The notes: generated by a model not told the origin, from the sequence alone. 64,000 bases of DNA from a virus (IMGVR_UViG_3300011442_000009:11331-75330), one strand, 5' to 3'. Counted from the first letter of the stretch, positions 1,386 through 62,844 are shown. A program made the numbers and translations.

Positions 1386-2861
1386 ATGCGCCCGGAGATT
1401 TTAGAAAAGCTTAGAGCCCACCAGAGAGCACCAGCAGAGCAGCTCCTCCAGATCCTAAAGTCTGGGGGAGTTGCTTTTGATCTCTCAGACACTGGCACTG
1501 GGAAAACTTTTGTGGGCGCGGCAATCGCTGCAGAGCTGCAGGTCCCGGCACTGGCGATTGTCCCAAAGATCGCAGAGACCGCGTGGCACGAAGCCGCCGC
1601 GCATTTCGGTGATAAGATCTCAGTGGTAGGCTGGGAGCTTCTGCGCACCGGTAACACTCTGTATGGACGCTGGGAGAACGGCCCGCCTCCTCCACGGGAT
1701 GAGAGAATGTTTTTCAAGTGCCCGAATTGCCTTTGCAAATTAGACCCGGCGAAAATGATTCCGTGTTCTGCGCACTGGGCCGGGATCCATTGCCTTGAGG
1801 TAAAGACGAATCCCCACAAGTACGGTAAATTCATTTTCAACCCGGCTATCCGCCTTTTAATTTTTGACGAGATCCACCGCGCCGCCGGAGACAGTTTAAA
1901 CGCGGACATGGTCATCGGCGCAAAACGATCCGGCATACCGACGCTCGGTCTTACCGCGACTTTGGCGCACTCTCCTCTGCACCTGAGGGCGACCGGCTAC
2001 CTCGCAGGGCTTCACCAGCTCGGCAATTTTGACCAGTGGTGCGGACAACGCGGTTGCCGAAGGGTGCCGATGCGCGGGGTCCAGTGGCTCGCACCGAAAG
2101 AGAAGCAGGACGAGATAATGCGAGCGATAGGCCGCTCTATCATCCCCTCGAAAGGCGTTCGCGTCCTTCGGTCGGAGATCCCGGACTTCCCGGGGCGCAG
2201 CATACAGGCGGAGCTCTTCGATCTCCCGAAGGAGGATACCGACGAGCTCAATGCACTCTACGAGATACTTTCTGTGCCGCTGGCTGACCTTGAGGCGCGC
2301 GCGGCCGCAGATGTGGACCCAGAGCTCGCCATAACCAAACGGCTGCGTGCAAGGCAACGTATAGAGCTCCTGAAGGTCGGCGTAGCGGAGGAGCTGGGGA
2401 CAGACTACCTCCAGAAGAACCACAGTGTCGTTTTCTTCGTCAATTTCCAGCAGACCGTGGATGAGCTCCTGCGCCGCTTCCCCGGGGCCGGGCTGATTAC
2501 CGGCCAGATTACCGGGAAAAGGCGTCAGGACGGCGTGGCGGCCTTCCAGAGCAACAGGAACCGCGCTTTAATCGTCAATAACCAAGCTGGAGGCATCGCC
2601 CTGAGCCTTCAGGACCTTCATGGAGACTTTCCCCGGGTCGGAATTGTCTTCCCGGCCGACTCTCCGGTCGTAATGGAACAGCTTTTCGGCCGTTTGGCGC
2701 GTTCCGGAGGAAAATCGGATGCACTTTATCGAATTATTTTCGCATCCCGGTCCGTCGAAGTGCCGATGCGCCGCTCCTTAGAGCTGTCCTACAACAACTT
2801 AGCGGCCCTGAAAATTCCTGAAGAAATATCTTGCAATCCTTTCGTCATTGAGGCAAAGTAG
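1386..2861 (+). CDS. Superfamily 2 (SNF2-like) helicase
   Basis: Walker A SDTGTGKT, DEIH box, LTAT motif III, C-terminal QLFGRLAR; Cys-rich insert CPNCLC. Confidence 0.85.
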   Translation: MRPEILEKLRAHQRAPAEQLLQILKSGGVAFDLSDTGTGKTFVGAAIAAELQVPALAIVPKIAETAWHEAAAHFGDKISVVGWELLRTGNTLYGRWENGPPPPRDERMFFKCPNCLCKLDPAKMIPCSAHWAGIHCLEVKTNPHKYGKFIFNPAIRLLIFDEIHRAAGDSLNADMVIGAKRSGIPTLGLTATLAHSPLHLRATGYLAGLHQLGNFDQWCGQRGCRRVPMRGVQWLAPKEKQDEIMRAIGRSIIPSKGVRVLRSEIPDFPGRSIQAELFDLPKEDTDELNALYEILSVPLADLEARAAADVDPELAITKRLRARQRIELLKVGVAEELGTDYLQKNHSVVFFVNFQQTVDELLRRFPGAGLITGQITGKRRQDGVAAFQSNRNRALIVNNQAGGIALSLQDLHGDFPRVGIVFPADSPVVMEQLFGRLARSGGKSDALYRIIFASRSVEVPMRRSLELSYNNLAALKIPEEISCNPFVIEAK

Positions 2862-2867
2862 GGGCAC

Positions 2868-3329
2868 GTGAAGAGCAGATTTAAAAAGGGCGACGAAGTA
2901 TACCGCGTGAGCTTCTGGTCTGAGGAAGCCGACGGCAAGTGCATCTTCTGGGCCGAGAAGGTCGTGCTCCAGAGCTGGGGCAAGCGGCAGGGGACGGCCG
3001 TAAACCACAAGGACGGAGAGCTCTGCCGCCATCGTTTTTACAATCACCCCGTGGAGCACTTCTTGCGGGTCCGGGGCGAGCGTCAGGTAGCCTTGCGCAT
3101 CGTCGCACCGGCGGTCTTCCGTAGCGCATTCATGGTGGAAGCTTTTGCTGCAGCAGTCGGCCCGATGGAATCCGCTTCTGCCATCGCCCGGAATATCTGG
3201 ATTGAGTCCGACTGGCTCGCTAATCATCAGCACCGCGCCAAACCCGCTATCGATATTGTCGAAAACGCCCGGCGCAAGCTGGCCGTCCTGCAGGCTGCGG
3301 TCCCCGCTTACGAAATTCGCTGGCGATGA
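2868..3329 (+). CDS. Hypothetical protein (153 aa)
   Basis: Tightly packed ORF with ATGA coupling to the next gene. Confidence 0.6.
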   Translation: MKSRFKKGDEVYRVSFWSEEADGKCIFWAEKVVLQSWGKRQGTAVNHKDGELCRHRFYNHPVEHFLRVRGERQVALRIVAPAVFRSAFMVEAFAAAVGPMESASAIARNIWIESDWLANHQHRAKPAIDIVENARRKLAVLQAAVPAYEIRWR

Positions 3330-3529
3330 AACTGGAAGAATTCAACAGCGAGCGCGAGGCCCGGGAGTATCTCGGATACCGGGGCTGGGTCCAGCAGCCG
3401 GGCACGCAGGTCTACACGAACGCCGACCTGTCCGGTCATCGTCGGGTAATTGTTCGGTGCGACGAGCGAATTTCACACAGTACTTTCGAGCACAGTATTT
3501 CATCAAAATGGGAGTTACACAGTCTATGA
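3326..3529 (+). CDS. Small hypothetical protein, EFxSxxxAxxxLxxxGW family
   Basis: ATGA overlaps on both sides; N-terminus resembles the ORF at 3726. Confidence 0.65.
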   Translation: MKLEEFNSEREAREYLGYRGWVQQPGTQVYTNADLSGHRRVIVRCDERISHSTFEHSISSKWELHSL

Positions 3530-3729
3530 GTATTCAATCAAGCAGAACCCGGGCCGCGATGCGCGAATTCCTCGAGCTTAACGCCGAAGAGCGCGCTCAG
3601 TTCGACGCCATGCGCGAGGAGCTAAACAACCTCGTTAAGCGCGGCAATTTTCTTCCGTGGAATCATCCGGACAAAGCGGATATTTACGCTGCCGGAGTCC
3701 GCCAATTTCAAGAGATCCACGACCTGTGA
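3526..3729 (+). CDS. Small hypothetical protein (67 aa)
   Basis: ATG at 3526 overlaps the upstream TGA; 3-prime part of track ORF 3145..3729. Confidence 0.6.
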   Translation: MSIQSSRTRAAMREFLELNAEERAQFDAMREELNNLVKRGNFLPWNHPDKADIYAAGVRQFQEIHDL

Positions 3730-3890
3730 AGACCTTTATGGAATTCGACAGTCGCGCAGCCGCCGAGACTCACCTTATCCGCCAAGGATGGAAGGTCAAA
3801 AAGGGCGACACGTGGGAGCACTGGAATCGCCCCAAGGAAACCCGCACCGTGAAAAAGGTTAAAGGCAACCTCTGGAAGTTCGTGCTATGA
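3726..3890 (+). CDS. Small hypothetical protein, EFxSxxxAxxxLxxxGW family
   Basis: GTGA overlap start; MKTFMEFDSRAAAETHLIRQGW versus MKLEEFNSEREAREYLGYRGW. Confidence 0.65.
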   Translation: MKTFMEFDSRAAAETHLIRQGWKVKKGDTWEHWNRPKETRTVKKVKGNLWKFVL

Positions 3891-8665: not shown

Positions 8666-8700
8666 GCCCCTGCAGTGAACCGCTGCAGGGGCTCTTTTCT
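8666..8700 (+). terminator. Intrinsic terminator
   Basis: 10-bp stem gcccctgcag/ctgcaggggc followed by tcttttct. Confidence 0.7.
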
Positions 8701-8719: not shown

Positions 8720-8754
8720 ATAGTTCTTGATTTGTTTAAACGACCTGCTAGTCT
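8720..8754 (+). promoter_or_regulatory. Putative early promoter: ATAGTTC-TTGATT-N16-TAGTCT with extended TG
   Basis: Shares ATAGTTCTTG with the sites at 129 and 18034; contains a GTTTAAAC palindrome in its spacer. Confidence 0.5.
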
Positions 8755-8764: not shown

Positions 8765-8911
8765 ATGAACGTCAAATGCGACTGGGAAGTCCGGAAGGCG
8801 GAGGCAGACCACTACCGCTTTGTGCCCTGCGGATGCCCGGCCAAGGTCTGCACGACCGGCCCGAAGTGGCAGCTTGGAAAACCTCGCTGCCGGAAGCACA
8901 CCAAAAAGTAA
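8765..8911 (+). CDS. Small Cys-rich hypothetical protein (48 aa)
   Basis: ATG 10 nt after the putative -10; ends 3 nt before the next gene. Confidence 0.45.
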   Translation: MNVKCDWEVRKAEADHYRFVPCGCPAKVCTTGPKWQLGKPRCRKHTKK

Positions 8912-8914
8912 TTT

Positions 8915-9526
8915 ATGAACAAAAGCAAAAACGCAGTAATCACACGCGAGCAATGGCTGCAAAACGCCGTGGTCGCAATGGAGCCGCTCTTTAATCGAGT
9001 CGGCTATAAAATCCCGGCCGTCCGGGTCTCCTGTGGGTTCCCCTACGCCAGCAAGAACGCCATTGGCCAATGCTGGGACAAGTCTGCCGCGTCCGATAAG
9101 GTCGCGCAGCTATTCGTCTCTCCGCAGGTCAAGGACGAGCTCGCCCCGCAGGGGGTGCTGCCCATCCTCGTGCACGAAGTGGTGCACGGCGTCGTGGGCA
9201 ACGACCAGAAGCATAACAAGGTTTTCGGCAAGTGCGCTCGAGCCGTGGGGCTCGAAGGCAAATTGACTGAGACTGTCGCCAGTGCCGCCCTCATCGAGGA
9301 AATGAAGGGCTGGATGAAAAAGCTGGGAGAGTATCCTCACGCCACGCTGAACCCGGGCAAGCGTCCAACGAAGAAGCAGACCACGCGCATGATCAAGTGC
9401 GAGTGCAAGGAGTGCGGCTACGTGGTCCGGACGTCCGCCAAGTGGCTCGAGATCGGCGCTCCGATCTGTCCCTGCAACCAGCAGCCGATGTTCTTCAAAG
9501 GCTGCGAAGAGAAAGGCGACGAGTGA
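8915..9526 (+). CDS. SprT-like zinc metalloprotease with C-terminal zinc ribbon
   Basis: LVHEVVH (HExxH), downstream H...F, CxCxxC...CPC. Confidence 0.8.
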   Translation: MNKSKNAVITREQWLQNAVVAMEPLFNRVGYKIPAVRVSCGFPYASKNAIGQCWDKSAASDKVAQLFVSPQVKDELAPQGVLPILVHEVVHGVVGNDQKHNKVFGKCARAVGLEGKLTETVASAALIEEMKGWMKKLGEYPHATLNPGKRPTKKQTTRMIKCECKECGYVVRTSAKWLEIGAPICPCNQQPMFFKGCEEKGDE

Positions 9527-10076: not shown

Positions 10077-10086
10077 AACACCCTCC

Positions 10087-10128
10087 GGCCGGGCCTGAAA
10101 AAAGAACTTCAGGCCCGGCCCTTCTTCT
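10087..10128 (+). terminator. Hairpin, likely terminator overlapping a weak promoter
   Basis: 13-bp stem ggccgggcctgaa/ttcaggcccggcc then cttcttct; TG-C-TAGGGT follows. Confidence 0.55.
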
Positions 10129-10145
10129 GCTAGGGTGCTTCCACT

Positions 10146-10316
10146 ATGTTGAATCTATGCAGCGAATTACACAGCCCCGTGGTGCACGATACTCATCAAT
10201 GCCCAGTATGCGCAGCGATAGAGGAACGCGATGAAGTCTTGCGAAAGCTTGACGAAAAAACCCAAGAGGTGGTCGATCTGAACACCCAAATCTCGAACAT
10301 GCGAGGAACACTTTGA
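10146..10316 (+). CDS. Small protein with CPxC and coiled coil (56 aa; not in ORF track)
   Basis: MLNLCSELH...CPVC...; TTGA overlap with the polymerase start. Confidence 0.55.
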   Translation: MLNLCSELHSPVVHDTHQCPVCAAIEERDEVLRKLDEKTQEVVDLNTQISNMRGTL

Positions 10317-12292
10317 ACCCCATTGCAATCGACTTTGAAACCTTCTACTCCAAAAAACTCAAGTGCACGGTCTTCGGAAACCTTCCTGAGGAATATGTTT
10401 CGCATCCACTTTTTGACACCTACATGGTGTCCGTGTGTGATGGGAGTCAGGCATGGTCCGGACACCCGAAGGATTTTAATTGGAGTGCTCTGGAAGGGAA
10501 AACTTTACTCTCTCACAATCGGCGCTTCGATAATACGGTGCTGAATAAAGAGATCAAGGAAGGCCGCATTCCGAGGGTCAACTGGAAGGCGTGGCACTGC
10601 ACCGCGAACCTGACGAGCTACCTCTGCAACCGGCGCTCTCTCGACCAAGCAATCGAGAACCTCTACAAGATTAAAGTCGACAAGTCCGCTCGCTCAGACG
10701 CTAACGGTAAACGCTGGCCGCAGGATTTTACCGACGAAGAGCGCAAGCAGATGCTGGCCTACGCGAAGGATGACGCCATCATATGTCATAAGCTTTGGAT
10801 GGATTACTCTCACAAAATGCCGGAGATCGAGCACCGGCTGTCTGACCTGACAATCGAACAGGGCATGCGCGGGGTCCAGATTGACGTAGGTCGTTTAAAC
10901 GAATACCTCGTCCGCTCCCACGAAATGCTCGGGGAGACCACAAAGCTGATTCCTTGGATGCAAGATGACGCCTCGGACGACTGGGACGAGTTCAACCTTA
11001 CGCCCACCGCTACGTTCTGCATCGAAGAGCAATGCCGCCGGGCTGGGATCGTGCCGCCTCCGAAAAAGACCAAGGATGCCGAAGGTTACCTCGAATGGGA
11101 GGCTCTCCACGTCAAGAACCACCCTTGGATCACCGCAGTGAGCTCTTGGCGCTCCATTAATAAGCTTTACAAGACTTTCGTCCTCGTGAAGCGGCGGCTG
11201 GACGAGAACGACGTAATGCCGTTCTCATTAAAATATTTTGGTGCTCATACCGGCCGCTGGTCTGGCGACGCTCGCCTGAACATGCAAAATATGAGGAAGC
11301 TCCCGGTCGTCTGCAACGAGAACGGCCTGATGGAAACCAATGAGCGGAGGGTCTTGAACGCCATTGACACATTTGAACAGGACGGAGCCTTCCCTAGCTG
11401 GGTGCGCCACACGCTCGATTTTCGTGCTCTGATTATCCCTCGGCCCGGGAAGAAAATGATAGTGTCCGACCTGAGCCAGATCGAGCCTCGAGTGCTCGCG
11501 TGGGTTGCGGGAAATCAAAAGTTCCTCGAACTTGTTGCTCAGGGATATTCTCCCTACGAAGCGCACGCGAAGGCGTCCATGAAGTATACCGAGCCAACAC
11601 CTTTGAAAGATACCGACGCCGGAATGTATAAGCTGGCGAAGGCGCGCGTGCTCGGTCTGGGCTATGGCTGCGGCTGGGAAAAGTTCATCACGGTCGCCTA
11701 CGCCATGGCGCGTCTGGACATCACCAAGGATGACCCGGAGTTTATCGACGAAACGAACCCGTACACCGGCGTGGTGACCAAGGACTCTGGTTACGGAGCG
11801 GGGAGCAAGGCCATCGTGAAACAGTTTAGAGCGGATAACCCAGAGATCACCAACCTTTGGAAAAGCCTCGACGAGAAATTCAAAGGAAGTGTTGGGGAAG
11901 ACTTCAAGGTTACGCTACCTTCTGGGCGCGTGATGCGATACGAAGACGTGAGAGCGTCCCTTGCAATTGAACAGGACCGTGTGACTAAAAAGCCTACCAA
12001 GACTTGGAAGTTCACCGCGATGTCCGACGCCCGCCGGAAAGCATACTACGGCGGAAAACTCACCGAGAATATCGTTCAAGCGATAGCTAGGGACGTTTTC
12101 GGAGTGCACGTTATCCGCATGGAAGACCGCGGCTGGCGGAATCTTTTCTCCGCACACGACGAAGCCATTCTGGAAGTCGACCAGTCCGTTACTGCGAAGG
12201 ATGTCGAAAAAGAAATGGGCCACTGTCCGGAATGGTTGAAGGGTTGCCCAATCGCAGCGGAGGCGAAGGAAGTTAGTCATTACCTGAAATGA
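10313..12292 (+). CDS. polA: DNA polymerase family A with 3'-5' exonuclease, Leu762 type
   Basis: Exonuclease motifs IDFET, HNxxFD, YAxxD; TGRWS; motif A SDLSQIEPR; motif B KARVLGLGYG; motif C AHDE. Confidence 0.93.
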   Translation: MNPIAIDFETFYSKKLKCTVFGNLPEEYVSHPLFDTYMVSVCDGSQAWSGHPKDFNWSALEGKTLLSHNRRFDNTVLNKEIKEGRIPRVNWKAWHCTANLTSYLCNRRSLDQAIENLYKIKVDKSARSDANGKRWPQDFTDEERKQMLAYAKDDAIICHKLWMDYSHKMPEIEHRLSDLTIEQGMRGVQIDVGRLNEYLVRSHEMLGETTKLIPWMQDDASDDWDEFNLTPTATFCIEEQCRRAGIVPPPKKTKDAEGYLEWEALHVKNHPWITAVSSWRSINKLYKTFVLVKRRLDENDVMPFSLKYFGAHTGRWSGDARLNMQNMRKLPVVCNENGLMETNERRVLNAIDTFEQDGAFPSWVRHTLDFRALIIPRPGKKMIVSDLSQIEPRVLAWVAGNQKFLELVAQGYSPYEAHAKASMKYTEPTPLKDTDAGMYKLAKARVLGLGYGCGWEKFITVAYAMARLDITKDDPEFIDETNPYTGVVTKDSGYGAGSKAIVKQFRADNPEITNLWKSLDEKFKGSVGEDFKVTLPSGRVMRYEDVRASLAIEQDRVTKKPTKTWKFTAMSDARRKAYYGGKLTENIVQAIARDVFGVHVIRMEDRGWRNLFSAHDEAILEVDQSVTAKDVEKEMGHCPEWLKGCPIAAEAKEVSHYLK

Positions 12293-14454
12293 AAATATTC
12301 ACACTCAAGAATCTTACGGACCGCGCCGGTGCATTCGACCGGGTTCCGTGGGATTTTAAATTTGCGTCAGAGACAATCTCCGCGGAGGTGCGCAAGAATA
12401 AAGTAAAGCGGCAGGCGTGGTGCACAGACCCCTCAGTCGAGCATTGTTTCTACTCCGCGTTTATCGGCGTCGCTGAGAGCGGGCGCGTGAACAAGGAGAA
12501 CCCTCCGAAGCTCCTGTGGCTCTTCGTCGCGGACTACGACTGCGTGATTTCCGACGAGCGGATGAAGGAGGCAATCGAGCAGATGCCCATCAAGCCGACG
12601 TATATTGAAACCTCCATCGGAGGCAATCGCCGGTTGATTTGGGTTCTGGAAGAACCGATTTTGCTAGGCTCGAATGAGTTTGCGACTTTCCTCCTGCAGA
12701 AGGCTGAGACTTGGCTCCGGCTCAATCAGCTCCCCATGCTCGACCAACCGGCTTTCATCACCACTACCCGGCTGTTCTGCTGCGGTGACAAGTGGGAGCC
12801 CACCGGCTACGGCCCGGTGCCGCTCGCGAAGTCGCAAACATTTTTCTGCGACTGTGGGAAAGAGTATCGTTTCAGAAGTTACGATGAGATTTTGATTCCG
12901 CTGGACGTCGCTGCAGCAGAATTCGCGAAAAAGTATCCGGAGACTTTCTCGAAATGGCCCGGGGAATTCGTATTGGGAAGCCAAGGTCCCAGCTTCTGGG
13001 TGCCCGGCTCGGAGTCCGCTGGCTCTGCAATCGTAAAGACTGAGGGTATCTTCACGTTCGCAGCACACGCAGAGAAGGCGTTCTTTACTTGGGGTGACCT
13101 TCTCGGACAAGACTTCGTTAAACAATATCGCGACACCGCCATCGCCCGGGCCTCTCACGACATCTGGTGGGACAACCTGAAATTCCACCGCAAAATCGAT
13201 GGGGAGTATGTGTCGATGACGAAGGAAATTTTCGTGAACTATCTCCGGGTAGACTGCGGCCTCTCCGAGAAAGCGGACTCCTCCGGCACATCACCTATCG
13301 CCCAGACCATCCAGCACATCTACAATCACCAGAGGGTCGCCGGGGCAGCTCCGCACGTTCCGCTTCCTACCGGCATTATTTATTCTCAGGGAAAGCGCTG
13401 CTTGAACACTTACACCGGGCGCGTGGTGGAGCCCGCGACGGGAGTGCACCACTGGGGAGATCTGGGAATGTTCCCGTGGATCTCCAGAATGATCGACACA
13501 CTTTTATACCCAAAGCTGCAGAAAGAGTATCTGTTGGCGTGGTATAAGTACTACTATCAGGGCATGCGAAAAAAGCTATGCCGTCCCGGACAGATTCTGA
13601 TTATCCAAGGTCAGGCCGGTTGCGGAAAGTCACTGCTCAGTCGTGAGATCATCGGCCGGTCCGTCGGCGGGTTCTGCGATCCTTCCTCTTTCGTGCTTAA
13701 CGGCAGCAATTTCAACTCAGAGCTTTTCGAGATTCCGCACTGGGCGCTGGACGACGATGCCCCTAGCGCAAGTCAGCACGCCGCCGGAGGAGCTCACGCA
13801 ACGATGAAGAAACTCGTGGCGAATGACTTCTTCATGTATAGCAAGAAATACGAAGTCCCCAGCATGGTTCAGCGTGGCGGTCGGCTGATTGCTACGATTA
13901 ATCCCGACGTGATTAGCCTCAAGTTGATTCCCAGTCTGGACGATGGAATGCACCAAAAGTTTTCGCTGTTCCGTTGCGCAGACTTCGGTCCCGAAAAAGA
14001 CAACTTCACGTTCCCCATGGACCGCGAGGAGATCCAACGCATCATCGAAAGAGAGCTCCCGTATTTTCTGGCATGGCTCGAGGCGTGGGAAGTGCCGGAC
14101 CATATTTCCCGCGGCGACGGCCGCTTCGGTTTCGCAGCCTACCACGATCCCTCCATGGCAGAAACCTCTAAGCAAGCCGGTTCTGCTGCGCCGTTCAAAG
14201 AGATTTTGCTGGAGACCCTGATAGAGCACTTCCGGCAAAATCCGGAGGATACGACTTGGACAGGATCCTCCAACCGGGTCATGCACCTTTTGGAAAACGA
14301 TATCAGAAACCAGCTCGCGCTCCGCTCTTACAAACCCGAAAAAATCAATTCCAATCTCGAAACACTGTCGAAGGAAAATTTCCTCGGCCTAACAACCTCC
14401 TCAGATCCCAGCACCGGCATCCGCCTCTGGACCTTTAAAAAACCCACCGCATGA
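12289..14454 (+). CDS. Primase-helicase (AEP-like N-terminus plus D5/SF3-like helicase)
   Basis: VADYD and ETSIGGNxRLIW primase-like motifs; Walker A GQAGCGKS; FNSEL...DD; KKY/K motif. Confidence 0.85.
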   Translation: MKIFTLKNLTDRAGAFDRVPWDFKFASETISAEVRKNKVKRQAWCTDPSVEHCFYSAFIGVAESGRVNKENPPKLLWLFVADYDCVISDERMKEAIEQMPIKPTYIETSIGGNRRLIWVLEEPILLGSNEFATFLLQKAETWLRLNQLPMLDQPAFITTTRLFCCGDKWEPTGYGPVPLAKSQTFFCDCGKEYRFRSYDEILIPLDVAAAEFAKKYPETFSKWPGEFVLGSQGPSFWVPGSESAGSAIVKTEGIFTFAAHAEKAFFTWGDLLGQDFVKQYRDTAIARASHDIWWDNLKFHRKIDGEYVSMTKEIFVNYLRVDCGLSEKADSSGTSPIAQTIQHIYNHQRVAGAAPHVPLPTGIIYSQGKRCLNTYTGRVVEPATGVHHWGDLGMFPWISRMIDTLLYPKLQKEYLLAWYKYYYQGMRKKLCRPGQILIIQGQAGCGKSLLSREIIGRSVGGFCDPSSFVLNGSNFNSELFEIPHWALDDDAPSASQHAAGGAHATMKKLVANDFFMYSKKYEVPSMVQRGGRLIATINPDVISLKLIPSLDDGMHQKFSLFRCADFGPEKDNFTFPMDREEIQRIIERELPYFLAWLEAWEVPDHISRGDGRFGFAAYHDPSMAETSKQAGSAAPFKEILLETLIEHFRQNPEDTTWTGSSNRVMHLLENDIRNQLALRSYKPEKINSNLETLSKENFLGLTTSSDPSTGIRLWTFKKPTA

Positions 14455-15131
14455 GCACCATCTTTGACCAATTAGATTCCCGCGGTTTGACACAAAAAGA
14501 GACCGACATCGCCTCGCGCAAGGTCCGGTTCGGGAAACCGGCGGAGCGCGCGGAGGGCATCGAGTTTTTAGTCGTGCGCTCCCTCCGAGAGTCCGTGCTG
14601 CTCCTGCGCAAAATGAGCAAGGGGCGTCTGGATGACGGAGAGCTCATCAGCATCGCGTACAAAGCGCTCGAGAGATCTGCGCGCTCCTACAATCCCAGCA
14701 AGGGCAAGCGCTTTTTCTACTTCTCGAAAAAGGCCCTCCGAGGAGTCCTGATCGAACACTTCCGGGGCAACGAGGTAGTGAAGCACGCCGAAAAGCCTGC
14801 GGCGTCTTGGGAGGAGGCCGTATCCACTTCCCGGCCGCGGAAGAGCCATCCGGATCTCGAGGATCCGGAGACCACGAGCGAGCTCGAGGGCCGGAGCGAC
14901 GCAGACTTCTCGACGATCTATCAGAAGGAAGATTTCGAACAGGTGACGCGGGCAATGAAGTGTTTAAACCACTTCGAAAAAGCCATTGTGCTTTTCATCC
15001 GCGCTACTGGCTACTCCTTCCGGGAGACCGCCGAAGAATTCGGTTGCTCTCGCGCGTGGGTCGGACTTTGCTATAACCGGGCCATCGAAAAATTACGTGC
15101 CGTTTTGGTCCCGGGGCGCGATAGTATTTAG
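14451..15131 (+). CDS. RNA polymerase sigma-70 family factor (alternative sigma)
   Basis: Region 2-like AYKALERSARSYNPSKGKRFFYF; region 4 HTH YSFRETAEEFGCSRAWV...RAIEKLR. Confidence 0.8.
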   Translation: MSTIFDQLDSRGLTQKETDIASRKVRFGKPAERAEGIEFLVVRSLRESVLLLRKMSKGRLDDGELISIAYKALERSARSYNPSKGKRFFYFSKKALRGVLIEHFRGNEVVKHAEKPAASWEEAVSTSRPRKSHPDLEDPETTSELEGRSDADFSTIYQKEDFEQVTRAMKCLNHFEKAIVLFIRATGYSFRETAEEFGCSRAWVGLCYNRAIEKLRAVLVPGRDSI

Positions 15132-35439: not shown

Positions 35440-35443
35440 AAAA

Positions 35444-50410: not shown

Positions 50411-51144
50411 ATCTTTTCACCTAGAAGGTGACGCCGACCCAGCTCGATTAGCGAAAGGTCCTTGACCCCGTGGATCCAGATTAACTGACCGCGTTGGGCC
50501 TCGTGGAACTTCTCCAGCGTGTAGCCTCTAGTTGCATACCACGATACAATACCGGGGATGTTTGCCCAACCTCTTTTTTTAAACTGGGGAGAGAGCGCGT
50601 AGTCCCAGCCCACATTAGCTTTCAGGCCGTCCGCGGTCCTGAGCACCCACTTCAGCATGGTTGCTTCTCCGTTGACGAGAAGGTTGCCGTTCATGTGCTC
50701 CGCCGGGATGTACACTACCGGGCCAGCGACGCAGACCGGTTTCGGTTTGTTCGCGTAATCCCACGCCTGAGACATACGAAGGATCCAGTCAGGGAAAACC
50801 GGACACCCGTCAGACTCGCAGGTGAAAATTGCCTTGTACCGCGGGATCCTGCGTGCGGCACTCATCGACTCCGCCCACCGAATTGTATTTATCCAAAGAG
50901 AATTGCAACCGGCGGGCCAGCCGGTGTTCCCCCGGGGCGCAGAGTACTGCCACAAGTTAAACTTGCGAGAGATCTGCAGGGCAATGGGGCCGGGCAACGA
51001 AAGGCAATCGTGCCGGTTTACCAACAGCACGTCCGCCAGATCCGAATGCCTCGGCTCGAGATCAGCGAGGTACCTTATGAGAGCCTCGGCCTGAGCCTTA
51101 TCGCCTTCCCAGTACTGAAGTGCGATCAGTATTTTATTGCTCAT
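50407..51144 (-). CDS. Putative GT-A glycosyltransferase (245 aa)
   Basis: IFTCESDG (ExD) and C-terminal IHGVKD; ATGA coupling; paralog pattern with 47824..48552. Confidence 0.55.
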   Translation of the reverse strand: MSNKILIALQYWEGDKAQAEALIRYLADLEPRHSDLADVLLVNRHDCLSLPGPIALQISRKFNLWQYSAPRGNTGWPAGCNSLWINTIRWAESMSAARRIPRYKAIFTCESDGCPVFPDWILRMSQAWDYANKPKPVCVAGPVVYIPAEHMNGNLLVNGEATMLKWVLRTADGLKANVGWDYALSPQFKKRGWANIPGIVSWYATRGYTLEKFHEAQRGQLIWIHGVKDLSLIELGRRHLLGEKI

Positions 51145-52067
51145 CGGCTGAGAACCCCTTGTGGCTTGGGTGTTGTATTCTTCGGGCCGTAAACGCAGTG
51201 GCCAATGTGTCCGCATATTAATCCTAAATCGACGTAAGGCGTGTGCCCGGCCGCTTTGGCCCGAAGACAAAAGCTTACGTCTTCACCGACACCAAGAGTG
51301 TTTTCTGCCTGAGCGAGTGCAATAGCCGATTCCAGACCGCGGAGCGCGTCGTACCCTTTCGCGGCCGTGATGGGTCCGTCGGCCAGCGCGTTCCGTACCC
51401 TCGCAACTTGATCAAGAAGGCTCGCCTCAGTCGAAGTGAACCAGTTTCCTCCAGCCTTGTTCGGGCCTTGTCGGGCGATACGCGGGAACACTTTTTCGAT
51501 GTCCTCGAAAACTGTGCGGTGAGTAAGAAGGCAGCCAGTTCCAACCCATCGAGTTTCCTGAATTTTGTCATAGGGACCTTTGCGGTAGTATTCAGCGACC
51601 TGCGGATTCGCGCTTCCCTCGTTGGTGACCGGGGGTCCGTACCGGTGACGCCCAAAATACAGTCCGCCGACGAGAGACTTTCCGTGGCTCATGAGCCGGT
51701 CGAGAGTGTTTAAACCCATAAACTGCTCCGGAAAATCGAAGTTCGTATGAGATCGATACCAGTCGGCATTCCCGAAGGGAAGCAGCATGTCGTCGTCGAC
51801 CCAAAGAGCATAATCGCACGGGGACTTTAAAAAGATTTCGGCGCAAGTGTTCCGCGTGTGTGAAATAAAGGCGTCGCCCCACGATAACAAACAGGATGTT
51901 CGCCGACGGTCTATCAATTGAGCGACACAGAAGGCCGTCATTGGCGACACGTTCTTGTGCCACGGCATGATAATCATAACCTTCTTCGAGACCATGGCAA
52001 CCGCCGCAGATTTATCCGCCAGGAGCCCGGGTCCTCCTCCTGTTTTATCTGAAAATCCTAACTCCAT
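51141..52067 (-). CDS. GT2-like glycosyltransferase (308 aa)
   Basis: RNxCA...DYALWVDDDM, VGTGCLL, GEDVSFCLRA...G, VDLGLICGHIG. Confidence 0.8.
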   Translation of the reverse strand: MELGFSDKTGGGPGLLADKSAAVAMVSKKVMIIMPWHKNVSPMTAFCVAQLIDRRRTSCLLSWGDAFISHTRNTCAEIFLKSPCDYALWVDDDMLLPFGNADWYRSHTNFDFPEQFMGLNTLDRLMSHGKSLVGGLYFGRHRYGPPVTNEGSANPQVAEYYRKGPYDKIQETRWVGTGCLLTHRTVFEDIEKVFPRIARQGPNKAGGNWFTSTEASLLDQVARVRNALADGPITAAKGYDALRGLESAIALAQAENTLGVGEDVSFCLRAKAAGHTPYVDLGLICGHIGHCVYGPKNTTPKPQGVLSR

Positions 52068-52609
52068 GCTTTTCCTTTTCGTAAATTCTCTTGTTTAAAC
52101 AACGGCTGCGTATTTGACCAATTGAAACACTGTCTCTGTTGGCCGGGATCTCTAAGATCGAAACTGGCGCAAGGGCGTTTGTGATCCACATGCCAAACTC
52201 GACCGTAGTTTTCCCAGCTCATCCCCGGTTTGAACTGCCCGGCTAGGTACTCTCGGTACTCTTCGATACCGCAGCCCAGCAGCTCTATAGAGCTGCCGTG
52301 TTTTACGCTATCTCGAAGCGCCGCCCGGACACGGCTCCTGAGAGTCCACATAAGTCGAAACCCACTGTCGGTTTTTAGCCGATTTTTAATATACCGTCGG
52401 TTTGAGGCTCGGTACTTGATCGCGTTCCGGTGATACCGGGCTAGGGACATCTTACGACTCCGGGCCACGTCAGAATAGTAGCTCTTTTCTTTGTGCCGCC
52501 TAGTTCTTTCCGGATTCTCTCGTCTCCGGTCGCGTTGCAGTTTCCACCTACGCCGCACCGCCAATAAGAGCGCGGCGCGGTGGAAATCGAATGTCAATTC
52601 TTGGCCCAC
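52058..52609 (-). CDS. HNH-like endonuclease
   Basis: LLGC...YLAGQFKPGMSWENYG.VWHVDH..PCASFD...CFNWSNTQPL...NLRK. Confidence 0.85.
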   Translation of the reverse strand: MGQELTFDFHRAALLLAVRRRWKLQRDRRRENPERTRRHKEKSYYSDVARSRKMSLARYHRNAIKYRASNRRYIKNRLKTDSGFRLMWTLRSRVRAALRDSVKHGSSIELLGCGIEEYREYLAGQFKPGMSWENYGRVWHVDHKRPCASFDLRDPGQQRQCFNWSNTQPLFKQENLRKGKAWS

Positions 52610-56508: not shown

Positions 56509-56772
56509 TTAACAGTCGAAGGTATCTGTTTGGCGCGCTACTTTTTCTCTAAGCCAGTACTTTCGAGGGCACTGCTCGGTACAAAGTGAGGTTTTTGAAA
56601 TGATCAGGCACTTGCAGACCCCGCAGACGTCCTCTTCCCGGTCCGGGCACACGTTGCAGACCTGTGCACGGGTCCAAATTGTCTTCCGGGAGGCCAAAAT
56701 CTCGTATCCGCGGAATTTCCACCAGCACGAGCGAACGAATGCCATCAAAAAGTGCCAAAAAAGCATGATCAT
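56509..56772 (-). CDS. Small Cys-rich protein (RxxxCxxCP...CxxCxC...CP..W), 87 aa
   Basis: ATGA coupling; six Cys in a conserved-looking pattern. Confidence 0.7.
   Translation of the reverse strand: MIMLFWHFLMAFVRSCWWKFRGYEILASRKTIWTRAQVCNVCPDREEDVCGVCKCLIISKTSLCTEQCPRKYWLREKVARQTDTFDC
56512..56540 (-). promoter_or_regulatory. Putative late promoter TAGCGC-N16-CGACTGT
   Basis: 7 nt upstream of the portal ATG. Confidence 0.65.
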
Positions 56773-57341
56773 ATCTGGGTTTTCCTCCAACAGTGGGCCG
56801 GTAGGTCGTTATTCGCTACCCGGGTCGAGTCCAAGTGCACCGCAGTGGGCAAATCCTCTCCCAAAAAGCCGCAGGCATGGAGCCGGGCGTCGAGCAGGCG
56901 CTTCCCTATGGTTGCCTTCCTGAGCTCGTTGAGCGCTTTGACGCAACTCTGGCAGCCCCCGGGCAATTCGTTGTTCCCCGGGCACGTGGCGCACACGTTT
57001 GCTCGGTTCCGGCGCTCATCGTCAGGCACGAAAACCAGTGGATGCACCTGTACGTGCTCCCTGAGAGCTGTGATCCACTTCAGGACCCGTGTTTTCAGAG
57101 TCGTCTTGGCGAGGGTCTCGGCGTACACAGCATTTTCAGTCCGGCAAAGCCCCGGGTTAACCCGGCACGCTTGCGCGATTACCTCCGCGGCGACGTCCCC
57201 GACGGGCACCCCGGCCCGTTCCCGGAACCTCTGAACCTTCGCGATGACCCCGGGCCACGAGTTGCTCGTGTGCGTCACATTGTTTTCATCTTTGAAGGAA
57301 AAGCCACCTTTGGGAAACACGTTATTATTGATCGTTTGCAT
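56769..57341 (-). CDS. Cys-rich protein (190 aa) with RxxxCxxCP...CxxC...C...CW domain
   Basis: Starts 1 nt after the terminase stop; Cys pattern resembles that of the adjacent gene. Confidence 0.7.
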   Translation of the reverse strand: MQTINNNVFPKGGFSFKDENNVTHTSNSWPGVIAKVQRFRERAGVPVGDVAAEVIAQACRVNPGLCRTENAVYAETLAKTTLKTRVLKWITALREHVQVHPLVFVPDDERRNRANVCATCPGNNELPGGCQSCVKALNELRKATIGKRLLDARLHACGFLGEDLPTAVHLDSTRVANNDLPAHCWRKTQI

Positions 57342-57342
57342 A

Positions 57343-59283
57343 TCACCAACTAAATCCATCCGGCATCGGTTCGAAATTAGAGTCTAAAACTTCGGTCTGA
57401 TTCGTGGCGTCGATTCTCGCGCCGCCTTTGTACATTGAGTCCATCCAAGAGTCGTCGATATTGCTGATCGTGTGCGAGTTATTTTCTCGCATGGAGAGCT
57501 GCACCTGAGACCCCCTGCGCGCCGCCAGCACCAAAAGCGACAACGAGTCGGCATCGTTGGGCGATGAAAAACCTCGGGACTCAAAATCTTTTTTGCTCTC
57601 GGTCTTTGACCGGCCGGAGATCACGCGATAGCGCCGGTTCGCGAGCTGCCCGGCGAGCTTGGTCATGTCGACCGACGGGTGAATCAGGAGGTACCCGAAT
57701 TCAAACCACATTCGCATCCCGAACCAAAGCTCGGTCGCTATGCGGTCGTACATTTCCTTGCAGATCTTGCTATCCTCGATCATCAGCTTCTCAAGGCTGG
57801 CGCTCTCGGAATAGTTTACGTCGTGTATCACGGAGGACCACTCGTAGCGGATCAGATCCGCGACACCCGCGCCGTGGCCGGTACGATCACATGCGTAGTA
57901 CTCCGGGCGTGTCCCGCTCTTGCGGTTCATTTCCATCACGGACTTTTTCATTGCCACTGTCTCGCCCTTGGGCAAAACAAACTGCTGAGTCACCTGAAGA
58001 CCCCAGCGCGGCATCACAGAACCGTCAGGTCGTTTAAACAGCGTCGTATGACCGTTGGGGTAGTCGACGGATGAAGGCCATTTAATTCCAGTTGCCATCC
58101 CCCATTTACCGATTGTATGAACTGCTTCGTCACCACCTTCCAAGGCCAGATCAGTGGCTCCGACTGTGACGGGTTCTTCGAACCAGATATACTCGCCACG
58201 AACTTTTCCCAGCATCCCAGCAGGAATGACCGTCGCTTCGATTCCAATTGCAGGATATAAACCTCGACCCATCGTCCGGTATCCGCCGGAGTTTCTTCCA
58301 CCAGCATTTGCGGCAATCTTTTCCAATCCACCGGCCGTCTGGAGCCCGGGATATATAACTTTTTTCTGCAGGACGTTCTCACACCTTTCACCGTCCAAGC
58401 GCAGCACGTTCCAGCCACGCGTGGATTTCCATTTAAAATGGACGTCTTCGTCAAGATTAGACCATCCAAAAGGGGGCTCTGCACGCTTGCTAACTTCGTC
58501 ATATGGATCAGAGGGGTTGTACGCGCCGAAGATCTTGAAACCTCTTCCGCCTTCTTCGGTGTTGGAAATGATGTTGTCGATGTCCGCCCAGATTCCCTTG
58601 GCGATATTCTCGACTTCGTCCATGAAAATAAACATGCGGGAAAGATCGCCGAGTACTGGGTGCGGTACCGGACGGGGTCGGCGTTTAGAACCTTGGAGAC
58701 GGCCCGCCTTCTTATTTGCGCCCTTCGGCACAATGACACCGCGAATTGATGAAAGTTGATCACGACGTGTTAATCCTATGAATAGCCCGCCGATCTCCCC
58801 GGCAAGCGGCACCGACGCGTTTTGATGGAGCGAAACCATGTGGGAGAACAGGTTTGCTTCCAAGTGATTCTCGGACGGACCGAGCAACCGGATCGTAGTA
58901 TACTCTGGATCCCGCGCCCACTCCATTAAAAGTCTGACGCCCATCGAAAAAGATTTTCCCATGGACGCCGCACCGCAAATGAGCCCCATGTCCGTGGTGT
59001 CGAAAAGCTCCCAGATATCCTTTACGCTCTGGGGCTCCGGGGAGAACTGTGCCGGGGTCCAAAGGATCTGTGCCGCTTCTGCTAGTGCGCCCTCCTCCAT
59101 GATCCCACGCACGTACGGCGCGAGCACCTCATTGATCTCTCCTTCTGTGGGTGTCTTCCGCTTTACCTTGAACTGCGCCTTGTAAAACCCACAGACCAGT
59201 TCGCACGCCGATATCTTCTGGTCGGAATGCACCAGCTTCGCGACCTGCGCCGCGAGCTGTTTTTCTGCTACTGGTAAACTCAT
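57343..59283 (-). CDS. terL: Terminase large subunit
   Basis: Walker A GAASMGKS, Walker B FIFMDE, coupling motif GAYNP, nuclease acidic residues ATDLA, CDRTG, SPNDADS. Confidence 0.9.
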   Translation of the reverse strand: MSLPVAEKQLAAQVAKLVHSDQKISACELVCGFYKAQFKVKRKTPTEGEINEVLAPYVRGIMEEGALAEAAQILWTPAQFSPEPQSVKDIWELFDTTDMGLICGAASMGKSFSMGVRLLMEWARDPEYTTIRLLGPSENHLEANLFSHMVSLHQNASVPLAGEIGGLFIGLTRRDQLSSIRGVIVPKGANKKAGRLQGSKRRPRPVPHPVLGDLSRMFIFMDEVENIAKGIWADIDNIISNTEEGGRGFKIFGAYNPSDPYDEVSKRAEPPFGWSNLDEDVHFKWKSTRGWNVLRLDGERCENVLQKKVIYPGLQTAGGLEKIAANAGGRNSGGYRTMGRGLYPAIGIEATVIPAGMLGKVRGEYIWFEEPVTVGATDLALEGGDEAVHTIGKWGMATGIKWPSSVDYPNGHTTLFKRPDGSVMPRWGLQVTQQFVLPKGETVAMKKSVMEMNRKSGTRPEYYACDRTGHGAGVADLIRYEWSSVIHDVNYSESASLEKLMIEDSKICKEMYDRIATELWFGMRMWFEFGYLLIHPSVDMTKLAGQLANRRYRVISGRSKTESKKDFESRGFSSPNDADSLSLLVLAARRGSQVQLSMRENNSHTISNIDDSWMDSMYKGGARIDATNQTEVLDSNFEPMPDGFSW

Positions 59284-59570
59284 ACTTCCCGGCCGCAGTT
59301 TAAGACGGTCTCCTCGGTAGTCCCGAGCGGGAACTTCACGAGCTCCGCCGTCTTCCAACCTCGTGCGCCGTAGCGTTTGGGTCGGGGCGTTGGAATCGAG
59401 ACCCCCTTATGGCTCTTGGGAGCCCGAAGGGAAAAATTGATTATCCGCATGGAGGTGGCCAGCCGGTCGAATCCGATCCGGGTCTTCCAGCCGCGATTTT
59501 TCCATGATCTCAGCCAGATCCGCGCCATCGGCAGCTCCTTCTCACAATACTTTCCAGTTATCAAAGGCAC
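59280..59570 (-). CDS. Basic hypothetical protein upstream of terminase (96 aa)
   Basis: GTG 5 nt after CGACTGT; ATGA coupling to terL. Confidence 0.55.
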   Translation of the reverse strand: MPLITGKYCEKELPMARIWLRSWKNRGWKTRIGFDRLATSMRIINFSLRAPKSHKGVSIPTPRPKRYGARGWKTAELVKFPLGTTEETVLNCGREV

Positions 59571-59731: not shown

Positions 59732-60487
59732 TCACTTCGCTCCACAGTCGCTCTGTGCAAGCAAATTAGCAAGCTCCGCGCGTGCGGCACGGGCCTTGTT
59801 ACCGACCGCTTTGCCGTTGCGGGAGACTATCCCATTGACGGTATGCTTCGACCACGGCACGCCGGTGCGGGTCGGATACCCCCGGGCATTCATCATGTCC
59901 GCCACGTCCTGCGTGCTGTAGCCTTGGCGGCTCCATTCCACGAGCTGGCGGAGTGCGTCCTGCTCCTCGAGCTTTGAACCGAAAGGTTTCTGTCCGCCTA
60001 CCCGGCCTTCCATTGCGGCCCGGATACGGGCGCTGCGCAATTTCTTGACCAGCGTGGATTTCTCCCACTGCGCGAGTGCCGCCATGAACTGGCGAATCAA
60101 GATGCGGGTAGGGTCGACGTCGTTTGACGCCATATCTTCAAGCGCGCCTTGGTCCGTGGCAAACAACTTGATTCCACGGTTGCGCAGCTCCCGCAGCAAG
60201 AATTCGCTAGCCATGAGATCGCGTGCCAGCCGGTCCATCCGCTCAACAATCACGCAGTCCACCTTGAGGCGAGGATTGTCTTTCAGCTCATCAATAGCCA
60301 TGAGCATCGCGGTAAACGCCGGGCGTTCTTCGGAGGTGCCGGTAATCGAGTCGAAAAATTCGAGGCTAGACTCTAGGTCGAGACCGTGGGCCTTTGCAAA
60401 AGCGGCGCAGGCTAGGCGCTGGCGCTCCGGGCCGTCACCTTCAATCTGACCCTTGCTCGAAACGCGGAGGTAAGTAAATGCTTTCAT
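59732..60487 (-). CDS. Small serine recombinase (resolvase domain plus short C-terminal DNA-binding region), 251 aa
   Basis: YLRVSS..Q, RPAF, ERMDRLARD, AQWEKS..V.K...AR; C-terminal LxxxGYPTRTGxxW. Confidence 0.9.
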   Translation of the reverse strand: MKAFTYLRVSSKGQIEGDGPERQRLACAAFAKAHGLDLESSLEFFDSITGTSEERPAFTAMLMAIDELKDNPRLKVDCVIVERMDRLARDLMASEFLLRELRNRGIKLFATDQGALEDMASNDVDPTRILIRQFMAALAQWEKSTLVKKLRSARIRAAMEGRVGGQKPFGSKLEEQDALRQLVEWSRQGYSTQDVADMMNARGYPTRTGVPWSKHTVNGIVSRNGKAVGNKARAARAELANLLAQSDCGAK

Positions 60488-60497
60488 TGAGACCAGA

Positions 60498-60746
60498 TTA
60501 CCAGAAGAGAAGTTCACATGCAAGCAAAATAGCGATAAAAATGATCATGCCCATAACACCGGCCTGCGCAAACGCTTCGATCCAATATCGCCGGGTCTGG
60601 TAGTCCCCGATTTTGATCGGGGCTTCCTGCATTTTGCGGTCTATCCAGAGGATGATCCACCAGAGACCTTGCGCTAGAGCCGAGACCACGAGACAAGCGA
60701 CGAACCACCACAGAAAGGTGCTGATCAAAGTGGCAATCCAGCTCAT
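60498..60746 (-). CDS. Two-TM membrane protein (82 aa)
   Basis: Two hydrophobic segments; ATGA coupling. Confidence 0.65.
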   Translation of the reverse strand: MSWIATLISTFLWWFVACLVVSALAQGLWWIILWIDRKMQEAPIKIGDYQTRRYWIEAFAQAGVMGMIIFIAILLACELLFW

Positions 60747-61379: not shown

Positions 61380-61382
61380 AAA

Positions 61383-61622
61383 TTACGCGCCGACGAAAAG
61401 AACCAAACTCAGAAGCGTGGTCATCGGGTTGTCCCGCATCGCCTGCTCAAAAGTTTTTCCCGGTGTGGGAAACCCGGCGTCCCTCGCGGCCTTGCCGACC
61501 AGCTCGAAACAAGTCGAGTCCGGGGGCAGCTCCGGCGCGGTACCGAGAAGCATGAGGTTGACAGCCTGATTGATATTCGCCTTAGCGGCGGTCGATAAAG
61601 ATATAGCCATAGCGCAAGACAA
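61383..61622 (-). CDS. Hypothetical protein (79 aa)
   Basis: ORF ending just before the tRNA. Confidence 0.5.
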   Translation of the reverse strand: MSCAMAISLSTAAKANINQAVNLMLLGTAPELPPDSTCFELVGKAARDAGFPTPGKTFEQAMRDNPMTTLLSLVLFVGA

Positions 61623-61644
61623 TCGTTGGCTCCGCGGAAAGCCG

Positions 61645-61941
61645 CTACTTCATCTTTTTCCTCGGGGCATAGACCCTGTGATACCCCGCACGGTGTATCA
61701 CTCGCTCGATCACGTCCGCAAGTTCCAGCACCACCCACTCCTCGAGATACGGGCACACCTCGTGTATTGATTCGTGAATCAAAGTGTCGCAGTAATCCCG
61801 CGGAGACTGCCGGGGATCCACCTTGATGGTGCCCGGCCGCTTGCCGGGTCGACAGCCCTCCTGATCGGAGTGCGCCCCTACGGCCTTCTCGCGCTTCGAA
61901 AATCGCCGCTCAACAACAGTGGGTAGGGGTCTCAATTTCAT
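61645..61941 (-). CDS. Minimal zincin-like protein (HExxH)
   Basis: I.VDPRQ...DTLIHESIH...EE.V. Confidence 0.7.
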   Translation of the reverse strand: MKLRPLPTVVERRFSKREKAVGAHSDQEGCRPGKRPGTIKVDPRQSPRDYCDTLIHESIHEVCPYLEEWVVLELADVIERVIHRAGYHRVYAPRKKMK

Positions 61942-62338
61942 AGAGATTGGGCATCTTGAAAAGAGTTGCTTTAGCCACGATGACGTCGTGCTTAAGAAGA
62001 CAGATGGTGTTGAGCGTGGGGGAAGACCACGTAAATCCTTGCTCTTTTACCCAGTCGGCTACGAAAGCGATTGCCAGTGGGTCCCGGTCGTTCACGGCCT
62101 GAGCCGTTTCCGGCAAGAGCCCCCATTCCTGAAGCCGCAGGCTGAGCCACATGGACTTGAGGCGCATAATGTCCCGGGCCAGCTCCGGCAGACCGGTTTG
62201 CGCCGTGAGCCAGAATTTCTCAAGGTCCGGCCGGAGGCCGCTCCATGGCGATTCTTTCCCACTCTCGGAACCAGTCGGTCTGGATCCACTGTTCGGGTTC
62301 TGTTTGTTCGTCGGCTGTTGATTCGGGTTGCACATCAT
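61910..62338 (-). CDS. Hypothetical protein (5-prime frame uncertain)
   Basis: C-terminal half is protein-like; an alternative frame near 62330-62220 also reads plausibly. Confidence 0.45.
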   Translation of the reverse strand: MMCNPNQQPTNKQNPNSGSRPTGSESGKESPWSGLRPDLEKFWLTAQTGLPELARDIMRLKSMWLSLRLQEWGLLPETAQAVNDRDPLAIAFVADWVKEQGFTWSSPTLNTICLLKHDVIVAKATLFKMPNLYEIETPTHCC

Positions 62339-62631
62339 ACCGTCGTGTCCTCCCGGACTTCGCGCATCTTCACGATGGCGTACTTGGTCTCACTCGAGCT
62401 CCAGTTTTCCGCATCCTCTTTAGTCTCCCGAATAACCTGAAGTACGTTGCCTTGGTAGACTGCCCACAACTCCTTGGGCTCCACTACCACGCGATAGTGC
62501 TCCGGCGGGTCAGAGAATTCCGGGTTCGTCAAGCGAACCCATTCCCCGGCCCCGGGCCGGTGCTCTAAAATTTTCCCGTCTCGAATTGCTTCTAAAAACG
62601 GCCAGTACTGATGGATATTGTCTTTAGTCAT
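62335..62631 (-). CDS. Hypothetical protein (98 aa)
   Basis: Phage-like pattern LEAIRDGK.LE...W...P.F...YRV. Confidence 0.7.
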   Translation of the reverse strand: MTKDNIHQYWPFLEAIRDGKILEHRPGAGEWVRLTNPEFSDPPEHYRVVVEPKELWAVYQGNVLQVIRETKEDAENWSSSETKYAIVKMREVREDTTV

Positions 62632-62844
62632 ATTTTTGCTACGTCTATCGGAATTCGCTGCAGGGGCATTATGTTTAAACGACGTCGCATGTCCCGCAGC
62701 TCTTGGGCGTAGCGACGCGCTTTTTCTTTTTTCTGTTTGACTACTGCGGCAGCCATTGCATCCGCCACGCGAAAATGATTACAGTTGACACCACCCACGA
62801 AATCGCGAGCGGCAGGGAAAAGTCGGCGCAGGCTTCGGCGAAAA

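Follow-up and report, generated by a model that had tools for sequence, protein, structure and literature searches.

Why should the genome of a phage that purges many short palindromes carry one 8-bp palindrome many times over, and what reads it? The question is raised by a stretch of viral DNA of 64,000 nucleotides (IMGVR_UViG_3300011442_000009:11331-75330; the window in what follows), which is taken from one phage contig of 75,330 bp (G000; bases 11,331-75,330). The window contains 14 exact copies of GTTTAAAC and the 11.3 kb to its left another two, which amounts to 16 in a whole phage genome of 55.9% GC. The original prediction, made from the window alone, had listed at least 14 copies and interpreted them as selected binding sites for a dimeric protein or as a self-mark. 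All 14 coordinates were exact, with 0.6-0.8 copies expected, and the general interpretation was supported by survival of the enrichment under a codon-aware null model, by recurrence of the word in related phages and by an extension of its symmetry to 10 bp by the flanking bases. Our data show that strong selection maintains both the copy number and the even distribution of an exact 10-bp palindrome, and that this palindrome is statistically and positionally tied to a conserved SprT-like protease, which in G000 is encoded at window positions 8915-9526 on the plus strand (protein P0002). The finding is real, strongly selected and common to phages across phyla, and the word together with the SprT-like gene probably constitutes an undescribed system.

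The simplest explanation would be that the copies are a functionless by-product of composition, codon use, amino-acid motifs or mutation bias, as the word fits only two usable frames and recurs in R-L-N or F-K peptides. We give this explanation practically no credence. Dinucleotide shuffles of the window yielded 0.56 ± 0.77 copies with a maximum of 3, and Markov models of orders 0-3 predicted 0.5-0.8 copies for the genome. The codon-aware test named in the original prediction left the enrichment intact: 300 shuffles that preserved all protein sequences as well as codon usage gave 0.80 ± 0.89 copies and never more than 4. Ranked by over-representation, GTTTAAAC came first among all 65,536 octamers of G000 (z 17.4; fourth by raw count), and ranks two and three were occupied by overlapping shifts of the word itself. 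A maximum-order Markov ranking of 8-mers was uninformative because the 7-mers within GTTTAAAC carry the signal themselves. Near-cognate words that differ from GTTTAAAC by one mismatch were at or below expectation, with no enrichment, which implies that the exact word is what is kept. The enrichment amounts to about 20-fold over chance in DNA of G000 composition; the word being that much rarer by chance in such DNA, the array labels the phage chromosome as self.

The copies lie mostly inside genes, as had been predicted; 15 of the 16 in G000 are intragenic, and the exception in the window is the intergenic copy at 8734. Because GTTTAAAC contains TAA in one frame on either strand, the sites occupy only the two stop-free frames, 11 as NGT-TTA-AAC and 5 as G-TTT-AAA-C. 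The rare leucine codon TTA is spent 11 times on the word, out of 112 occurrences in the genome, which again argues against a by-product. The peptide contexts able to hold GTTTAAAC were filled in 14 of 33 cases in G000 and in 138 of 462 over 14 genomes. Selection installs the exact word wherever protein sequences permit, mostly via synonymous changes. Since U-UUA-AAC is a classical slippery heptamer, we also considered programmed frameshifting, which was rejected on the grounds that the sites use both frames, both strands and about 15 different genes.

Recurrence of the word was examined in related genomes. No close cultured relative of G000 was found (megablast of 20 kb gave no match, and for the giant protein the only match was to a NUDIX domain). 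The large terminase as lone query retrieved one related contig only, and 80 related metagenome contigs were collected via the capsid protein. Fifteen near-complete relatives (G001-G015) were assembled, which together with G000 gave a set of 16 genomes; most of the relatives' proteins are 40-60% identical to their G000 counterparts. Among bacterial genomes the capsid profile matched a single contig, from a Peribacteraceae metagenome bin, and gave no host assignment. In 14 of the 16 genomes GTTTAAAC occurred in 7-20 copies, compared to 0.4-1.2 expected, and was the top or near-top octamer in each. Among 177 sites, drawn from 15 of the 16 genomes, a pyrimidine preceded the word in 89% and a purine followed it in 87% of cases, which implies that the real site is the 10-bp palindrome YGTTTAAACR. 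Within the window the same preferences were found as predicted (5' pyrimidine at 13 of 14 sites, 3' purine at 11 of 14), and the three 12-bp palindromes were confirmed at 10893, 31476 and 52093.

The conservation envisaged by the original prediction held in part: the word recurs and its number and even spacing are kept, but the positions mostly are not. Of the 54 alignment columns with a site in core genes, 38 were occupied in one genome only. Spacing was more even than random in 13 of 14 genomes (coefficient of variation about 0.5-0.7 versus 0.9; combined z -4.1), and the same was true of the cultured carriers described below (combined z -4.8). As the positions are mostly private and the spacing is even, selection keeps number and spread, not places. 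Non-random spacing does not follow from composition, and sister lineages of equal composition lack the word, both of which speak further against a by-product. A parS-like or packaging role, also suggested originally, found no support; the sites are unclustered, and no ParB-type protein was detected among the roughly 50 G000 proteins scanned.

Avoidance of palindromes by phages, on which the prediction had drawn, is pronounced in G000, with one GCCGGC versus 53 expected, one CGATCG versus 45, one GGCGCC versus 34 and no GGGCCC versus 19. A somewhat different set is avoided in each of the 15 relatives, which suggests hosts rich in type II restriction systems. This strong general avoidance makes GTTTAAAC a sharper exception. 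The word is the target of PmeI, and one could imagine that a methyltransferase or nuclease of the phage or its host renders it advantageous: its recognition is exact like that of a restriction enzyme, with one-mismatch words unenriched, and its TTTAAA core is avoided in restriction style in part of the clade. Such a restriction-modification link is nevertheless very unlikely in our judgement. Restriction pressure deletes sites and does not add them, and this clade purges many 6-bp palindromes almost fully. Moreover, no methyltransferase or restriction endonuclease family was present among the approximately 50 proteins scanned, and methylation alone explains neither the even spacing nor the copy in front of the SprT gene. 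A 259-aa protein left of the window (genome positions 10083-10862, locus L142) weakly matches the N-terminal domain of dATP/dGTP diphosphohydrolase (PF18909, E 4e-4, below cut-off). A 2-aminoadenine genome, at which this match hints, would be a tentative reading; A-containing palindromes are avoided like the rest.

Lineages that avoid TTTAAA carry GTTTACAC in place of GTTTAAAC, or neither word. G003, for example, contains 14 copies of YGTTTACACR and just one of GTTTAAAC, other lineages behave likewise, and actinobacterial cultured phages use this ACAC form. TTTAAA was found twice in ACAC-form genomes versus about 11 expected, and 0, 5 and 1 times in three sets of word-less relatives versus about 16, 14 and 10 expected. 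Outside the word, genomes with the palindromic AAAC form contained 164 TTTAAA versus 149 expected; in G000, 16 of 29 are within GTTTAAAC. The doubly changed GTGTACAC had zero occurrences in the genomes examined. We infer that the hosts of some lineages restrict TTTAAA and that the word persists there in a form that keeps one perfect half-site. In such hosts GTTTACAC would replace GTTTAAAC, destroying the restriction site, while the protein that reads the word probably accepts both the AAAC and the ACAC form and restriction decides which is used. In these data, restriction avoidance and motif maintenance visibly pull in opposite directions on one word within a single clade. As a separate observation, all 16 TTTAAA of the Pseudanabaena phage Pan1, a 72-kb cyanophage of 62.5% GC (loci L162-L165), lie inside GTTTAAAC.

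What, then, reads the word? The helix-turn-helix proteins and the recombinase named as candidates in the original prediction do not track GTTTAAAC, whereas the SprT-like protease at 8915-9526 does. Using tblastn, we found P0002 homologues in 164 cultured phage records. Twelve cultured phages over eleven host genera were picked by P0002 homology alone, prior to any word count; their hosts belong to the Actinobacteria, the Cyanobacteria and the Proteobacteria (beta and gamma). Ten of the twelve were enriched for GTTTAAAC or GTTTACAC, with observed versus expected copies of 16 versus 0.3 in Percival, 15 versus 0.6 in MaGuCo, 40 versus 2 in Bogota, 16 versus 0.2 in Pan1, 7 versus 0.8 in Arya, 4 versus 0.13 in Mano, 4 versus 0.7 in ep3, 8 versus 1 in Alexa, 7 versus 0.12 in Mica and 4 versus 0.09 in Persinger. 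The SprT-like gene is the sole G000 gene in common with the twelve. The two phages without the word, LK3 and Dismas, are exactly those in which the C-terminal module of the protein is degenerate, while 22 of 22 word-bearing genomes in the alignment keep this module.

The position of the word points to the same gene. In 10 of 10 word-bearing cultured phages a copy lies at most about 80 nt upstream of the conserved N-terminal region of the SprT-like gene, for which the chance is about 1-6% per genome. Measured from the annotated start, the distance is 15-20 nt in six proteobacterial phages and 31-73 nt in three others, and the Percival copy is just inside the annotated start. The counterpart in G000 is the intergenic copy at 8734, located in the promoter region of the SprT-like operon.

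Within the clade of G000, we fetched 48 PolA-centred loci and compared 24 SprT-positive, non-duplicate loci with 13 SprT-negative ones. The former contained 94 copies versus 12 expected, with at least three copies in 20 of 24, and the latter 14 copies versus 8 expected, with at least three in 1 of 13 (Fisher p 1e-5, phylogeny ignored). The flank preference was weaker in genomes with a divergent SprT subgroup. The G006 contig ends at the place of SprT, and partial contigs of word-less lineages stop short of the replication module, which makes both uninformative on the presence of the gene.

These phages also bear on the idea that a host factor reads the word, be it as a Chi-like signal for a helicase-nuclease, as a site for a nucleoid protein or as a copied HIP1-like host signature. 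Dispersed and evenly spaced copies whose number is kept but whose positions are not are what one would predict for a density-selected signal, and in G003 the asymmetric variant points in one direction in the left part of the contig and in the opposite direction in the right part. However, Bogota (17 versus 22) and MaGuCo carry the variant in mixed orientation, and an orientation related to replication, transcription or the genome ends, at which G003 had hinted, was rejected accordingly. The palindromic flanks indicate a reader of double-stranded DNA, and close relatives from similar samples lack the word. Enrichment of one and the same word extends over phages that infect Actinobacteria, Cyanobacteria and beta- and gamma-Proteobacteria, while known Chi and uptake words differ between such hosts. 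The occurrence of one word in phages of hosts from three phyla rules out a host-specific reader, and we regard a host factor of any kind as a distant prospect.

P0002, a protein of 203 aa, is predicted to be a SprT/Spartan-like zinc metalloprotease; its catalytic site is intact and its C-terminal module conserved. It contains HEVVH followed by a further histidine and ends in a CxCxxC...CPC ribbon. In a 24-sequence alignment H87, E88, H91 and H100 were invariant, and their counterparts in human Spartan are the residues of the catalytic HEMIH...H. The protein matches phrog_6361 (E 1e-49); PF10263 scored 17 bits, below its cut-off of 25.6, on P0002 and 30.9 bits, above it, on the G003 orthologue, and PF17283 did not match P0002. 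A profile search of the family gave a match to human Spartan (6MDX). The AlphaFold model of P0002 (pLDDT 86.6) had Spartan 6MDW as its best Foldseek match (probability 0.97), and VIA on the protease domain gave a middling Z of 7.7 with an rmsd of 3.5 over 102 residues, minigluzincins coming next. The conserved C-terminal module consists of a basic KKQTTR arm followed by the Cys-rich ribbon CxC..C...CP, with CGY.VR.T.KW and CP. Homologues from cultured phages, about 50% identical, bear the annotation SprT-like protease, and in G000 the gene is part of the replication module, with the polymerase gene adjoining.

On this basis, the SprT-like protein encoded by the phage itself is probably what recognises YGTTTAAACR. 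Several observations weigh against this assignment. The near-complete genomes G013 and G014 keep the word at normal density (10 and 14 copies) and have neither a SprT-like gene nor the zinc ribbon; the gene is cleanly missing, with its neighbours abutting at the syntenic place, and an excess of decayed sites was looked for in both genomes and not found. In addition, alignments revealed no residue of the zinc ribbon that separates AAAC-type from ACAC-type phages, and co-variation of specificity, the strongest kind of evidence, is missing as a consequence. In only 5 of 12 clade genomes is the SprT gene preceded by a copy at a distance of up to about 250 nt, the association tests are uncorrected for phylogeny, and the base rate of the word among SprT-negative phages is known for this clade only.

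Alternatively, another phage-encoded DNA-binding factor may read the word, with the SprT-like gene no more than a regulated target or a frequent genetic companion. G013 and G014 suit this possibility, and a copy upstream of the SprT gene is as compatible with regulation of SprT through the word as with autoregulation. We nevertheless consider another phage factor the less plausible reader, with perhaps a modest chance of being correct. No G000 gene besides the SprT-like one is in common with the twelve cultured phages, and loss of the word accompanies degeneration of the SprT C terminus in LK3 and Dismas. Furthermore, none of the proteins that are common to G013 and G014 and missing from SprT-positive genomes looks like a DNA-binding replacement.

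If the SprT-like protein is indeed the reader, recognition of the two GTTT half-sites is probably the task of its C-terminal zinc ribbon, for which a symmetric dimer would be the simplest arrangement. P0002 would accordingly be predicted to bind the probe sequences CGTTTAAACG and CGTTTACACG in contrast to single-base mutants and GTGTACAC. The copy in the promoter region of the SprT operon probably gives autoregulation, and the remaining copies would serve as docking or activation points that concentrate the DNA-dependent protease along the entire phage chromosome. Such concentration or activation along phage DNA is suggested because Spartan-family proteases are DNA-dependent (PMC5127644, PMC5128726). 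The protease could then clear phage DNA of proteins that are bound to it or trapped there, such as covalent DNA-protein adducts, host silencers or defence complexes. Taken one step further, we speculate that phages of many bacterial phyla have a sequence-addressed protease system in common, in which an exact, evenly spaced word recruits and activates a SprT-like protease only on phage DNA and thereby clears it of host proteins (silencers, translocating defence enzymes, covalent adducts), and in which an arms race with TTTAAA-cutting enzymes yields GTTTACAC. This wider proposal is tentative, and we would sooner expect it to need revision than to hold in full.

No published description of the pairing of word and SprT was found; full-text matches for the word were only primers and cloning sites, with subscription journals outside the search. 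Published mentions of phage SprT-like proteins are limited to annotation (bioRxiv 10.1101/2025.05.26.655371; PMC12363180). If the proposal is true, it would describe a viral self-mark made by a short word instead of base modification, held against codon preference and addressing an enzyme to the viral chromosome. It would also give a first testable function to SprT-like proteases, which are annotated in hundreds of cultured phages by homology only, and add to the Spartan/Wss1 protease family its first member with sequence specificity. Cultured carriers are available in E. coli, Enterobacter, Pseudomonas, Arthrobacter and Streptomyces, and the word is a simple sequence signature for spotting such phages in metagenomes.

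The 14 sites are distributed over the entire window. The intergenic region that holds the candidate operator opens with an intrinsic terminator (8666-8692, +; a 12-bp stem followed by a T run) 3' of a 330-aa gene. The GTTTAAAC copy (8734-8741) follows the stem of the terminator by 41 nt and precedes by 23 nt the ATG at 8765, where a 48-aa Cys-rich open reading frame (ORF; 8765-8911, +) heads the operon and leads directly into the SprT-like gene. A BLAST search of the region gave no homologue of this ORF in relatives. Among the plus-strand genes, further sites are located in a SNF2/DEAD-type helicase gene (site 1894-1901, gene 1386-2861, +; frame AGT-TTA-AAC), in the DNA polymerase A gene (site 10893-10900, gene 10313-12292, +; one of the 12-bp palindromes) and in a sigma-factor-like gene (site 14962-14969, gene 14451-15131, +). 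The minus-strand genes that follow contain sites in a 2,622-aa virion protein gene (site 27178-27185, gene 21563-29431), a 201-aa late gene (site 31476-31483, gene 31371-31976; 12-bp palindrome), a 335-aa late gene (site 39323-39330, gene 39041-40048) and a 533-aa fibre-like gene (site 41937-41944, gene 40410-42011). The alignment column of the site at 39323 is also occupied in G013, the closest relative. Further minus-strand genes that hold sites are a 242-aa gene (site 48285-48292, gene 47824-48552; same column occupied in G002 and G005), a 319-aa gene (site 49347-49354, gene 48543-49502), a 308-aa gene (site 51708-51715, gene 51141-52067), a 183-aa gene (site 52093-52100, gene 52058-52609; 12-bp palindrome) and the large terminase gene (site 58032-58039, gene 57343-59358; same column occupied in G013). 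The last site (62673-62680) is in a 56-aa ORF (62628-62798, -) of doubtful coding status and may be intergenic.

Several neighbouring features deserve mention. Between the large terminase and portal genes, a 196-aa protein (56769-57359, -) matches nothing in Pfam or PHROG and has eight invariant cysteines (C65, C72, C123, C126, C136, C139, C163 and C190). It is kept in 15 of 16 genomes and truncated in G004, and its model is poor overall (pLDDT 63), with confidence limited to the N-terminal part. As a gene specific to word-bearing genomes it was rejected, being present in G003 and partly in G004. A small serine recombinase of 263 aa (resolvase plus partial recombinase domain; 59732-60523, -) is encoded directly upstream of the terminase gene and kept in 16 of 16 genomes, although the phage is apparently lytic. 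An endonuclease VII gene (47324-47827, -) and two HNH endonuclease genes, one with NUMOD4 (17544-18062, + and 19881-20474, +), are interspersed among core genes and patchy across relatives, as mobile homing genes would be. In G026, a G004-like relative (contig behind L077), the DNA polymerase A gene is interrupted and consists of two neighbouring open frames (35109-37069). A second, independent octamer, CCGAGATC, is over-represented in G000 (17 versus 2.75 expected), and relatives have private words of their own (for example GATAGTTACC-like in G014, ACAGGTCC with 15 copies in G007 and CGCCTGGGCG-like in G002); such over-represented words may be promoter elements.

Among known systems, the stoperators of Cluster A mycobacteriophages are similar in that many dispersed copies of one word occur far above chance in a GC-rich genome. 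There, one short word is repeated 20-30 times per genome, both in genes and in the gaps that separate them, and a single protein encoded by the phage (L5 gp71, Bxb1 gp69) reads it; in our case the reader is inferred by association. Stoperators are asymmetric 13-mers that follow the direction of transcription and vary from one immunity group to the next; their reader is the helix-turn-helix immunity repressor of a temperate phage. The word described here is instead an exact palindromic 8-10-mer with symmetric flanks and a variant in both orientations, it is the same across phages of different phyla, its candidate reader is a metalloprotease, and there is no sign of lysogeny. The KorB operators (OB) of the IncP plasmid RK2 and the dispersed parS/sopC-like sites of prophage N15 are short palindromes, each set read by a single dimeric protein that the element itself encodes and that regulates its own operon as well, and they resemble our array of short palindromes over a replicon of 60-75 kb. 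In contrast, 15 of 16 sites are here in genes, not promoters, with number kept by turnover and positions not conserved, and no ParB/KorB family was found in Pfam or PHROG scans of about 50 G000 proteins, small ORFs being partly unscanned.

With the DNA-protein crosslink proteases SPRTN/Spartan and Wss1, P0002 has HExxH plus a third histidine, a related fold and a putative zinc-binding, DNA-binding module after the protease core in common. SPRTN recognises DNA structure, namely single-strand/double-strand junctions, and not sequence, and the searchable literature contained no description of a sequence-specific SprT relative with a genome-wide site array. A target of PmeI-type restriction-modification would be avoided, whereas GTTTAAAC is enriched. 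Unlike Chi-like signals, it is palindromic, occurs in phages of three host phyla and has a variant of mixed orientation. In form the word also resembles HIP1 (GCGATCGC) of cyanobacteria, likewise an exact 8-bp palindrome that is strongly over-represented throughout coding DNA and kept at synonymous positions. HIP1, however, is a feature of host genomes of one phylum, while GTTTAAAC is found in phages of many phyla and tracks a phage gene within one clade.

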